In this document: positions 9,083 to 56,671 of the stretch, piece by piece
How the letters are laid out: every line of letters begins with the position of its first letter
Position numbering within the stretch: the first letter of the stretch is position 1
Assembly (NCBI RefSeq): GCF_033153115.1
Contig: NW_026889756.1
Span: forward strand, 2,914,001 to 2,978,000
Length of the DNA stretch: 64,000 nucleotides
Origin: Saccostrea echinata
Taxonomy: Eukaryota
Direction of reading: 5' to 3'
Program-made: the position numbers and the translations under genes
Notes under the pieces: model-generated
What the model saw: the letters and a program-made list of their open reading frames with translations, nothing else
Told to the model about the DNA's origin: nothing
The model's database searches: none

Positions 9083-9187
9083 AGAAAGGCCTCAAACTGT
9101 CCATTCTGTGAGAGAAAGAACTAATCTCGGGCCTACGGCCCTCGATTAGTTTTTTCTCTCACAGAATAGACAGTTTGAGGCCTTTCT
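9083..9187. repeat. 105-bp fold-back palindrome
   Basis: Arms AGAAAGGCCTCAAACTGTC... / ...GACAGTTTGAGGCCTTTCT; centre GGCC-TAC-GGCC. Confidence 0.9.
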
Positions 9188-12100
9188 GCTTTATATAGAT
9201 ATATAAATTTTGACAAAGAAAAAGTTTCAAATTACTTCACATAATCAATTTTTGGACCTTTCTGTACTCACAAAATATCATTTTTCTGGCAATAAAAAAT
9301 TTAACAAGCAATAAAAGTATTGAAAGGTACATCTTAAACTTTTACTGAATTTAAGCAGAATGGGCAACGTTATTATATATATTCAGAAAAGAACATTATA
9401 AAAGTGGAGGTTTATGATGTCAATTTTTAGATATTAGTTTAAAAATGTTAATTTTAAGCTAAAATTGGGACTCTGAAGTTTCACAATATATTTGCTATTT
9501 TGACACAATATGGCGAAAGAATTCAAAATAAACAATTTAATATATATGAGTCGGGACCAGCAATAAATAACTCACTGCACAAAATAACTCTGTGTGTAGC
9601 CTGCATGGAAAAATAGGAATCTGGACTTACCGGTACTGTATAAACTCCGAAAAAAATGATCATTTTCCTCTTTTAAAAAAAATTCCAATCCCTAAAAAAG
9701 TTCCTCGATTAATGGTTTTTATATATGGAATTCAATCGTGAGGTTTTAATTAAATATAGTTAAATTGGCGTTGTAAAATCCAAATTTGTTAACTAAAATA
9801 AGATGCAGAATTTTAGAAATATAGGTCCAGACAAAAATCTGCTCAAAATCTCGGGATCAAACCCCCTTAAATCAATTCTTGTAATTATTTAAGGAGAAAT
9901 ATAACCAACCAAACTTTTTTTCACCAGAAATCAGCAATAGGTGTTATAGGTTTATTTTCGCATAGATAATATGAATAAAGTTAACCAGAGTGAAGAAATT
10001 TTGTAAGATTTTATAATAATGTCGTACAGTGTGCGTAAAAATTTGTATAAATTTATATCGAAAATGGCATTTTAAATTTAAACACCAAAGAATATGTAAC
10101 GATTTCAGAATATTTTAGGAATTTATTATTTGTGTCATTTCTAATCAAAATCAGTCAAAAAATGTATACCGACCCATGCATCGTTTTTTGTTTGTTTGTG
10201 TTACATGTATTTATCCTTAACTATCGGTATGTTATTTTTTTTTATATGTACTTATTTACTTTTTATAATATTTTTTTAAAAGTTTATTTAACATTGATAC
10301 ACAAAAGAAAACCACAAGTCTCATAACAGTGAAAGTTTATTAAGTCAAACTCGTAATCAAAACGAAAAACAAACGGAACAAACGTTGCATTGTTTAGTTG
10401 CAGTCGACAACAAAAGAACTACTGTAACGGTCTATTTGTACACGTATAGTTCAGATTTTGAAAAAAAAATACTGCATCGTATATGCATAATATACATCCT
10501 TGATCACATCTATCATTATTCTTTTCTCAACTACATGTATTAATCCTGGCGTGTTATTATATTTCAACAAAACATTGTGAATACATAAGAAAAATTTCCC
10601 ACAAAATCATACATTTGTAAAACTATATACAATTGTATATTATGTACGTTCTTGAAACAATAATATGCACAATAATATATATATGATACCATGACATCCC
10701 ATTTGTTCATGATGACAGAAAGATGAATTCTAAAAGTAGTTCTAAGTAAAATATTTTTTTCTTTTTAAGTCTTTTTAAGCAATCTCTCCGTGAAATAACA
10801 CATAAATTCACATATTAAATTGAACATATATTCTATTCTTTTTAATATCTTTAAGATAAATATTCCATATGCATAAAAAGAAAGTGAAAGCAGGAAGATA
10901 ATATAAAAAAGAGTAGTAGACTTAAAAGTGTTTAAACTGCATGAAATAAAAGAAAATAAAGTTAAAATCAAAATCAAACAACTTTTTGTCTATACACTTA
11001 AATCACTTTTGGGCGTTATAACCACACAGAGACGTTTAGATCTGTATTCCACAATTACATAATTTAAACACACCGGTATATAGAAAAAGCATTGCAGCTC
11101 CGTCACTTAAGATAAAATTTTCATAAATCTGAACACTTGGTCTGTGAAAATGTGCTTCGTAAATAGGAATTACCAGGTGTAATTCACAAGAAAGTCCTAT
11201 CTTTATATAAAGTAATAAAACAAATAGAAAGATCTTTTTAATTTTAGTTAGTCTGAACTTATCAAAAATACGCCATATATGACTTTAATACTTAATTATA
11301 ACTTATTTCTCATTAGAAATATTCATCAGTTCAAACGACGAAAAACTTTAACATATAAATTCTAGGACGTACAGCACTTGACATGAAAGATTGACCAAGA
11401 TTGACCAATAATCTAATGTATAGCACAAGTGATAAAATGCGTAAAATTATGCTCATTCAAACAGCAAACGGCAACAAATACTTTAAAATACATGTAGGAA
11501 AAAAAGCAAAGCACACAAACACAAATAACCACATAAAAAAAGAAACAAAATGAAAAAAAAAAAAAAAAAAATTAACAGCACTTAGTATCAAATGAGTGGG
11601 TCGTAACTGTAATTATGACGTATGAGGAAGGAAGATATGAAATATGAAGTCATTTTCAAGTGCTCTTTAACACATACATCTATCTTACACCCATTTCTCT
11701 AGTTTCTTCCCGTTTCTAGATTCAGTTAATGGATTCTCACCAAAAAAGAATCAAGCTCTCATTTAGAACTTCAATATTATACAGAAACATACTGATTGAT
11801 AAATGTGAAGAAAAAAAAGTAGGAAGAAAACTACATGTATACAATACAGGTGACTAGCACATGTGTTATACATACCAACAAAAAAAAGTTTATTCAAAAA
11901 TATTTGGAATCTGAAAGATTAAAACCCCCATTCACCACAGTCATGTGATTATATTTCTCCAGGTCATGAATTATATAATACTCTAGGAACATAAAGTAAT
12001 GTTTATAAATATGGACACGAATGAAGTCCTGCTAATAATCTAATATTAGCATATATTAAAATACAAAATGACGAAAAGGCTTTGAAAAAATGCATTCCTT

Positions 12101-55300: not shown

Positions 55301-56671
55301 AACTATTTTAAAAGAAAAATAAATCACACCGCTAATTTATTTTGTGTACAGTGTATATGAATGTAGAGACAATTATAATTTTGATTTTAATTTTAAAGGG
55401 ACACAACCCATGAAACAGAATATGATGTGAAAAGATTCTTAATTTCCATTATTGAAATAATTACATGCAAGATTGATAATGGCAATTAGTTTTTCCTGAA
55501 CAACCAAGATACTACACACGAGAAGACGCAGAGAATGCAATGAGATACATCAATGGAACAAGGCTGGATGACCGGATTATTCGTACGGACTGGGACCACG
55601 GCTTTAAGGAGGGTCGGCAGTATGGGAGGGGGAAAAGTGGGGGACAGGTAAAAATTTATAAATTATGCAAAATGTATCAGAAACTCCTCCTTGGCTATTA
55701 CATAGAGAATAAACATAGCTCTTTCCATATCACATCCTGTATCAGCCCAATACACCCATATCAGCCAGAGGGCCAGAGGCCCGAGAGCTGATATTGCCAG
55801 AGGGCTGATACTTGGTTATGGAAATGGTGTGTTTTACATTATTTATTTCATATAATTTATCACATACATAACCAGCTGATAATATACAATTACAGTCTAG
55901 GTATACCTCTGTTAGTACACCATTTCTAACATTTCACTTTGTTTCTTCAAAATTTGATGGGAAAAAGGAAATTTTTAGAAAAGTTAATCACATCAAGGAC
56001 AAATTAATACCTAATCTAACACATCAATATTTTAGCACAATCAGAAAATAAACTTCATGAAGAAATTTAATTTCATGTACAAGTTAAGAGAAAGAAAGCA
56101 TATATTTATATAAAGATAAACTTATGTGAAAGTTTCATGAGGTACTGTGTTGATTCTAAGTTGTTCAAATCATTGGCCCCAGGGGGTAGGGTGGATTCAC
56201 TATAACGAGTCAGAGATTTATGCTGGATTAAGTAGGAAAAAGTTTTGTATATATAATCATGTGTCTGACTCACAGGACGCATGAATTTCACTGCGAGCCA
56301 TTAAATTTGTATGTATCGATGCCAGGCTGAAGGTATTAAAATTTCCACAAATTAAAAATTCACATTTATAAATCTGTCTCAAATTAACTAGCTGTACCGT
56401 TATCAAAGCATTAGGTATATATGCAAGTCAAGTGACAGAACTCAATAAATAAAAAAAAATAAATTATTCTTATAATAAAGTTATGCTGACTGAGTCCTTC
56501 AGTCACAAAAGGGCTAACTGAAGTTGAATTTAAAATTGTTTTCCTTTTTTTAAATACATTTATCCTAAATTTCAGGTCCGTGATGAATACAGAACAGATT
56601 ATGATGAAGGAAGGGGAGGTTATGGAAAAATAGTAGCTTCAAAGATTAACCAATCACGTGACCCCATGTGA
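52333..56671 (+). CDS. NCBP2: Nuclear cap-binding protein subunit 2 (CBP20), 162 aa
   Basis: Exons 52333-52404, 54611-54792, 55509-55647, 56576-56671. Motifs [68 protein letters not shown]. Confidence 0.97.
52876..53140. repeat. 44-bp minisatellite x6 in NCBP2 intron 1
   Basis: Unit CCTGGACAACCACTAATATCCAAAGATACCAGAACCAAACACCA. Confidence 0.95.
54125..54384 (+). mobile_element. Decayed copy of the tRNA-LTR TRIM
   Basis: Segment GTGAATGTCTTTCCAGGGGGAAAAA…AAAAAGTGGGGGAAA resembles the TRIM internal region and PPT, followed by TTTGATCACTGGTGGCCAGATAGCTCAG (LTR A box). Confidence 0.55.
54793..55508 (+). other. U12-type (minor spliceosome) GT-AG intron of NCBP2
   Basis: 5' splice site GTATCCTTT; branch site TTTTCCTGAAC ending 7 nt before the AAG acceptor; no polypyrimidine tract. 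Confidence 0.92.
55723..55823. repeat. Decayed fold-back palindrome in NCBP2 intron 3
   Basis: Core ATATCAGCCAGAGGGCC-AGA-GGCCCGAGAGCTGATAT with outer arms TTCCATA…TATGGAA. Confidence 0.7.

Follow-up and report, generated by a model that had tools for sequence, protein, structure and literature searches.

We analysed 64,000 nucleotides (nt) of the Saccostrea echinata genome (RefSeq assembly GCF_033153115.1, contig NW_026889756.1, positions 2,914,001 to 2,978,000), called the window below and numbered from its first base. The window contains five long DNA hairpins, each of which is one end of a different high-copy, non-coding repeat family (A to E). It is on balance probable that the five families are built like the Cryptons of this genome, which carry a DUF3504 tyrosine recombinase, and that this recombinase recombines one folded strand. 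The hairpins bear marks that fall together on one strand, c[GNA]g loops and tandem G·A mismatches, and joining the two ends of an element lengthens the hairpin stem and leaves a 2-nt bulge close to the joint. The end structure is a real feature of a known transposon class. Neither hairpin ends nor a single-strand model for Cryptons is described in the literature searched, whose scope left aside Repbase and Dfam entries, subscription journals and supplements (including the element lists of PMC3212892) that may describe the ends.

All five fold-backs listed in a preliminary description of the window are present where it placed them, at 9083, 18399, 19411, 37486 and 55723, and 300 kb of block-shuffled DNA held no comparable hairpin (GC content is 34% in the window; the assembly spans 923 Mb). 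The minus-strand closing loops reported for three of them were also found, C[GTA]G at 9083 and C[GAA]G at 18399 and 19411, as was CGAG opposite CGAG, with one instance at 9083 and two at 18399. None of the hairpins stands alone. Their host elements span 0.35-1.3 kb (A 1.32 kb, B 0.52 kb, C 0.35 kb, D 0.83 kb and E about 0.45 kb), and copy numbers of 219-1382 first-look candidates per family are lower bounds.

The family A element lies at 8147..9197 on the plus strand (consensus positions 279-1319 of 1.32 kb, 90% identity; at least 326 first-look candidates). Its hairpin is at the right end (9080..9190, G·A strand minus), with a c[GTA]g loop and one tandem G·A, and an internal inverse copy of the far terminus lies at 9068..9077 (minus). 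A second tandem G·A occupies an outer site in 12/30 family A copies. A family A left terminus at 5314..5416 (plus; consensus 1-103, 93%) is possibly the displaced start of the same copy. Family B (17957..18545, plus, 0.52 kb; at least 965 candidates) lacks its last 11 nt in the window. Its far terminus at 17957..17970 (plus) is the inverse of 18377..18390 (minus), directly inside hairpin B (18399..18545, minus), which has a c[GAA]g loop and two tandem G·A. Family C is full length at 19223..19576 (plus, 0.35 kb, 98.6% to consensus; at least 1382 candidates). Hairpin C (19408..19574, minus) has a c[GAA]g loop and a single G·A mismatch but no tandem, and the internal inverse copy of the far terminus is at 19402-19411. 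Family D lies at 36864..37660 (plus, 91% to the 0.83-kb consensus; at least 357 candidates), with its hairpin at 37486..37648 (minus) and the inverse copy of its far terminus at 37468-37478. Family E is a fragment at 55702..55852 (minus, 81% to consensus; at least 219 candidates) that retains the hairpin end only, with the hairpin at 55723..55823 (plus).

The window copies of hairpins D and E are decayed. Consensuses built from the 25-30 top-scoring copies of each family restore the intact pattern in both, with c[GTA]g and three tandem G·A in D and c[GAA]g and at least two tandem G·A in E. The preliminary description assigned the decayed G·A form to the plus strand in both cases; this holds at 55723, and at 37486 the G·A strand is minus. 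It also proposed a shared code of triloop and tandem G·A. The c[GNA]g triloop is present in all five consensuses and tandem G·A in four, C being the family that lacks it. The imperfections are fixed in the consensuses, which are not perfect palindromes.

All five elements have one architecture. Read along the G·A strand (window minus for A-D, plus for E), which in each case is the strand on which the hairpin leads, the order is a short leader, a 50-80-bp hairpin, a 10-28-nt inverse copy of the far terminus, the body and the far terminus. The inverted copy of one terminus is therefore internal, 110-190 nt away from the opposite end, and there are no classical terminal inverted repeats. The earlier view of these elements as unrelated gives way to this common plan, and four of the five link to Cryptons.

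Recombinase-coding partners

The closest tie is that of family B, which has both ends in common with L204, a 2.76-kb recombinase-coding element that also exists as a second full-length copy (99% identical). The first 117 nt agree at 86% and the last 179 nt at 95.5%. Six of the eight differences in the last 179 nt form three compensated pairs, one changes the middle base of the loop, and one converts G·T to a Watson-Crick pair. The L204 reading frame matches PF12012 (E=1e-14) and is 44% identical to the intact 511-residue protein of L187; its later catalytic residues are found in downstream frames, which we read as spliced exons. Translation of the DNA between the L204 ends gave no reverse transcriptase. 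The partner of B is thus an element with a DUF3504 tyrosine recombinase and with neither transposase nor reverse transcriptase. Family B is very probably a Crypton, and its sequence marks the window element as a non-autonomous relative of the one at L204.

The search for autonomous partners through extended consensuses, proposed in the preliminary description, reached the other families to different degrees. Hairpin A is 82% identical to the hairpin of L161, hairpin E 79% to the ends of Cryptons L243, L254 and L255, and hairpin C 68% to the ends of L206 and L207, these three families being tied to Cryptons through the hairpin end only. Family C is related to the Cry4/5/9 Crypton group. D is assigned by its architecture. 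No recombinase remnants were detected inside A-E by tblastn. Taken together, it is quite likely that all five families are Cryptons. The preliminary description had expected an HUH/Y1-type enzyme or a tyrosine recombinase instead of a DDE transposase; of these, the tyrosine recombinase is supported, as is the exclusion of a DDE transposase, and the HUH/Y1 option falls.

The association is also seen at other loci. Among the at least 150 DUF3504 matches listed, 40, many of them copies of one another, were picked by score and frame length and examined as 10-kb loci. A hairpin in its T·C form lies downstream of the gene at 26 loci and in its G·A form upstream at 8 (2 doubtful), with neither at 6; about 4 coded hairpins would be expected at these loci from the background rate of an unselected 800-kb sample. 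Among 30 loci with the PF00589 domain, a hairpin accompanies all 4 that coincide with a DUF3504 match and lies within 1.5 kb of 0/26 without a listed one, 3 of which contain a decayed B-like insert.

The coding elements are 2.0-2.9 kb long and their long frame is the recombinase. L187 has an intact single-exon gene whose protein retains the catalytic residues R241, H374, R377, H400 and Y409 (R-H-R-H-Y). Its structural model (predicted local distance difference test score, pLDDT, 83) matches QRICH1 and then Cre in a fold search, with the Tn1549 integrase also matched. The closest named relative of one recombinase from this genome is an oyster protein at 91% identity.

The polarity of the hairpin goes with the element end and not with the gene, which is inverted in one clade. 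The hairpin precedes the gene in L203, L205, L209/210/223, L224 and L161, where the sense strand is the G·A strand. The five inverted-gene elements with long frames form one branch with a Shimodaira-Hasegawa-like approximate likelihood ratio (SH-aLRT) of 100, in a quick tree with long branches (36 proteins from this genome only, with L189, L192, L223 and L225 left out), and the polarity is kept in them. In L209/223 the shared region begins at the hairpin and finishes in the inverse repeat. L208 and L189 were scored as the upstream type and look like chance neighbours.

Published Cryptons of the CryptonA/DUF3504 type (PMC3212892, PMC13465315) likewise have a single DUF3504 tyrosine-recombinase gene, non-autonomous derivatives with both ends in common, short target-like direct repeats and no target-site duplication. 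Non-autonomous Cryptons are known, including human Eulor5/6 (PMC5753468). What sets the elements described here apart is a strand-marked terminal hairpin of 100-200 nt, together with an inverted repeat that is asymmetric (10-28 nt) and a joint that pairs with itself. Kojima and Jurka (2011) describe animal Cryptons as lacking terminal repeats (PMC3212892), and the word 'hairpin' occurs 0 times in the available text of that paper and of the 2026 Glomhopper paper (PMC13465315).

Two observations concern the distribution of these elements. At L070 the hairpin of a different Crypton family is interrupted by a family C copy, and at L197:6589-9821 five fold-backs are stacked within 3.3 kb behind the gene; these elements appear to insert into and beside one another. 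Contigs from four sequencing runs of other organisms show B- and C-like repeats, nine sequencing runs having 5-6% of words present.

Strand marks and joined ends

The strand marks were scored in two sets of loci. In an unselected sample of 80 evenly spaced 10-kb stretches (800 kb), 18/75 fold-backs carry the pattern, or about one coded hairpin per 45 kb. With regard to the survey of palindromes suggested in the preliminary description, this sample bears out the co-orientation of GNA loops with tandem G·A (loop and tandem polarity agree in 6/6 cases where both could be scored) but not its generality. The pattern as a rule for all palindromes is ruled out by the other 57/75 fold-backs; within the window, three of at least 70 nt (18182, 43038 and 44404) also lack it. 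In a 1.97-Mb set enriched for Cryptons, loop and mismatch polarity agree in 138/140 hairpins and 16/16 clusters (P=3e-5 if the clusters are independent, which they may not be). Loop and mismatch are co-oriented, as the preliminary description held. The two exceptions are old family E copies in which GAA has become AAA.

Further statistics describe the marks themselves. Polarity is uniform across the 110 hairpins that contain at least two tandems. The commonest 2x2 mismatch is GA/GA, found in 23 clusters, against 1 for the reversed AG/AG, and 27/28 stand in a pyrimidine-GA-purine context, which is where sheared pairs have been documented (PMC10085684). The c[GNA]g loop, a known DNA mini-hairpin (PMC13037366), makes up 19/35 triloop types. 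Some coding families (L187, L193, L199 and L209) have c[TT]g, c[TTT]g or c[GTTA/G]g in its place, always on the G·A strand. That strand also has 28 G·T against 12 A·C (P=0.017), a skew also seen in the bottom strands of integron attC sites (PMC5027507). In family C and nine relatives, 47/75 pairs co-vary and C-GAA-G is invariant in 10/10 sequences.

The preliminary description went further and held that only one strand folds. This is not supported: by DNA energies calculated with ViennaRNA for the consensuses, the advantage of the G·A strand is only 0.8-4.2 kcal/mol, on totals of 65-93. Nearest-neighbour energies may underrate sheared pairs. The strand is marked, not exclusively folded.

The exact ends of the elements were obtained from empty sites. 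Of 105 copies, 24 gave a spanning hit and 7 of these were set aside (microsatellite or self-match). In 15 of the 17 informative copies the rejoined flanks equal a paralogous empty site with no gap, and there is no target-site duplication. Since empty sites are restored without gain or loss, the length of the element at its ends is fixed. Insertion is conservative, into a short AT-rich target with 2-5 bases in common with the joint, and joint cores are AT-rich, of TATTTAT type. The crossover itself is sharp. In B, the base after it differs from that of the element in 17/28 copies, and each of the two bases further upstream matches in only 12/28. The corresponding first base in A is unlike that of the element in 21/26 copies.

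When the two ends are joined, the hairpin stem is lengthened through the inverse repeat, and the joint falls inside one continuous stem. At the register of the empty sites, two extra bases lie on the arm of the joint, within about 8 nt of it, in 5/5 families, giving each a predicted folded strand with a 2-nt bulge near the crossover. Copy by copy, the bulge is present in 26/26 (A), 28/28 (B), 19/19 (D) and 4/7 (E). Family C has the same local bulge, its copy tally being cancelled by a gap further out. Natural head-to-tail junctions at L043, L326 and L197 show the same fold and the two extra bases (3/3), although such tandems are rare (3 loci in 1.97 Mb). Among coding families, the bulge is established for L326 and L197 only. 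Overlaps estimated from flank profiles are unreliable in TA-rich sequence and were replaced by the empty sites and natural tandems.

A candidate single-strand mechanism and its rivals

A sharp single crossover with free mismatch, a stem-completing joint, a fixed bulge and strand marks are all attC-like, and together they favour single-strand copy-out and paste-in. The recombinase would then recognise single-stranded DNA and likely works on a folded single strand, as in bacterial integrons; to the attC-like mechanism as such we give about an even chance. In this mechanism, replication or hairpin extrusion would expose the G·A strand. With its c[GNA]g loop and its sheared G·A pairs, that strand could fold as a near-perfect helix, its complement carrying T·C bubbles. 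The far terminus would anneal next to the base of the hairpin and bring the two element-host joints side by side, where the recombinase would cut the G·A strand and close it as a single-stranded circle. Once folded, the joint with its bulge of 2 nt would serve as an attC-like site. Exchange would follow with a single strand of a double-stranded target, and the resulting junction would be resolved by replication.

The likeness to integron attC sites and their integrase IntI (PMC5027507) includes, in this working model, a folded single strand, low sequence conservation and extrahelical bases, together with a GAA loop and the G·T skew on the strand used and microhomology at the crossover. There are also clear differences. 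The cores here are AT-rich, with no RYYYAAC/GTTRRRY motif and no attI array, the site forms only once two ends meet, and the bulged bases sit on the arm that contains the joint. No tandem sheared G·A pairs are described for attC in the text available, and the protein is nearer Cre than IntI. A bacterial precedent for one-strand circularization by tyrosine recombinases is given by the strand-biased circularizing integrative elements (SEs) of Vibrio (PMC9345347), which have four core genes and in which the strand bias was shown, whereas here it is inferred.

We suggest more tentatively that animal Cryptons as a group are eukaryotic single-strand recombination elements, in which one strand is copied out as a circle with an attC-like joint, recognisable by stable motifs peculiar to DNA and by the 2-nt bulge, and a Cre-like enzyme performs one strand exchange. 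If so, eukaryotes would have an equivalent of integron and CTX-phage chemistry, carried out by the protein family ancestral to ZMYM and QRICH1. A single-strand model, if true, would add a duplication-free integration chemistry in eukaryotes and hint at the DNA shapes that domesticated DUF3504 proteins may once have read. In the literature searched, the mode of movement of animal Cryptons is not demonstrated and their ends are reported as featureless. The architecture supplies exact ends and an intact single-exon enzyme, and it defines the substrate as a folded oligonucleotide that carries a 2-nt bulge, which makes movement directly testable. It also provides a rule for recognising many unclassified palindromic repeats.

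Several points weigh against the preferred reading. With regard to the strand marks, the 1.97-Mb set is enriched for Cryptons by the choice of loci, and its 16 clusters may descend from one ancestral end. Family C and its relatives lack tandem G·A, and the tandem G·A site of family A is perfectly paired in 15/30 copies and G·A in 12/30. Intramolecular gene conversion can yield compensated pairs in any palindromic DNA. Both strands fold at similar predicted energy, and for the A copy in the window the difference, 1 kcal/mol, is in favour of the opposite strand. As to the joint, 2/17 empty sites differ, by 5 and 7 nt, the automated overlap score on flank profiles misplaced the register of B and returned varying bulge sizes among coding families, and the circle intermediate is putative, tandem junctions pointing to it only indirectly. 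On the side of the enzyme, six of the 40 DUF3504 loci lack such a hairpin, L161 (the partner of A) is a decayed copy, and the L187 model is nearer Cre than the integron integrase (2a3v, rank 49). Finally, no recombinase-coding partner was found for D: when its 66 exact core matches were compared by eye with the 150 listed DUF3504 matches, most of these loci not being read, none lay where a partner would have it.

The main rival is that Cryptons move as double-stranded circles, the published (Goodwin) model (PMC3212892, PMC13465315), with the folded strand acting only as a splint or primer signal by which the circle is closed or copied, as is thought for DIRS-1, or as a cruciform bound away from the cut. 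We consider this unlikely but worth serious weight. The inner arm and inverse repeat are complementary to the joined ends, much as the internal complementary region (ICR) of DIRS-1 is complementary to both termini of an element whose circle is integrated by a tyrosine recombinase (PMC5633606), and the Cre-like fold and the match to the Tn1549 integrase also speak for this model. The elements here nevertheless have no reverse transcriptase and no long terminal repeats, and a terminal hairpin provides the complement as one of its arms. A double-stranded circle also fits poorly with a single sharp crossover whose neighbouring base mismatches freely and which brings in no variable coupling sequence, and the fixed 2-nt bulge has no evident use in a splint.

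It is improbable that the hairpin is instead a replication signal for host enzymes, used for second-strand priming or rolling replication of the circle and not read by the recombinase. Mini-hairpins do occur at priming sites of single-stranded phage DNA (PMC13037366) and head-to-tail copies exist, but such tandems are rare, and the pairing of the far terminus in fixed register across the recombination joint is left unexplained. Quite improbable, too, is an absence of function, with palindromes homogenised by template switching and G·A imperfections kept by descent or because they harm the host less. Gene conversion accounts for compensated pairs, and the small energy gaps between strands and the two states of the family A site agree with this explanation. 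Tandem number and place, however, vary among families that cannot be aligned, yet polarity is uniform in every multi-tandem hairpin; the loops range over GNA, GNNA, TT and TTT yet stay on the G·A strand; and host tolerance cannot pick a strand relative to the element end.

A role as RNA, in a 3' untranslated region or terminator of the recombinase transcript, is very improbable. In the majority type the hairpin lies about 140-600 nt past the stop codon of single-exon genes, and the G·T skew fits G·U pairs equally well. The transcript of that type would nevertheless bear the T·C form, and in the inverted-gene clade, where the hairpin is upstream, polarity is kept, which an mRNA structure would not do. 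The triloops accept any middle base, one RNA mini-hairpin quoted in PMC13037366 melts at 39 °C against 76.5 °C for the DNA form, and the hairpins have no Rfam match.

A Helitron2/Helentron origin, with movement by an HUH Rep-helicase, was first considered for the asymmetric inverted repeat and has next to no remaining probability. The inner copy of the asymmetric terminal repeat just before a terminal hairpin resembles Helitron2 ends, for which asymmetric inverted repeats and a subterminal hairpin are defining (PMC3627910), and the genome has at least 150 Helitron-domain matches. The hairpins here are long, however, and the ends flank a tyrosine recombinase; because B shares both ends with a recombinase-coding element, this origin is largely refuted for B. 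Moreover, five 6-kb stretches behind Helitron genes (a small control covering three families, with ends tentatively placed) had no coded long hairpin. Many of the Helitron-domain matches lie in uninterrupted frames of 2,000-2,900 residues, which suggests recent Helitron activity in this genome. A DIRS-1-like retrotransposon was rejected on the lack of reverse transcriptase and inverted long terminal repeats in 2.0-2.9-kb elements whose long frame is the recombinase, and a DDE transposon-derived miniature inverted-repeat element on the lack of terminal inverted repeats and target-site duplication. The window shows what the latter looks like: the palindrome inserted within family B at 18182..18252 (no strand assigned), with perfect 33-bp arms, a 7-nt direct repeat on either side and no G·A pattern, looks like a DDE-type miniature element and is an internal contrast to hairpin B.

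Other features of the window

The fold-back at 43038-43202 has 60-nt arms, a 45-nt loop and no G·A pattern, and its outer ends resemble the base of hairpin C. Other mobile elements have conventional ends. A 2.4-kb element at 27373-29764, located within an intron-like region, carries 35-bp terminal inverted repeats and arrays of 11-bp subterminal repeats at both ends, and terminal inverted repeats also bound elements at 4004-4685 and 19645-19978, the latter with a nested second inverted pair. Weak tRNA matches at the Rfam threshold occur at 671-728 and 46973-47329, which are probably tRNA-derived repeats; the second adjoins a 47-nt inverted pair. Minisatellite arrays are present at 6319-7231, 22271-24271, 36103-36662, 40753-41674 and 52832-53183, with units of 168, 57, 46, 29, 65 and 44 nt.

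Two host genes lie on the minus strand. The gene at 3265-41305 has an RCC1-repeat exon and several Glu/Lys-rich frames further along the strand, and is probably RPGR-like. The gene at 48502-50130 is a 542-residue frame with a Glyco_transf_22 domain, a mannosyltransferase that appears to be PIG-Z-like.

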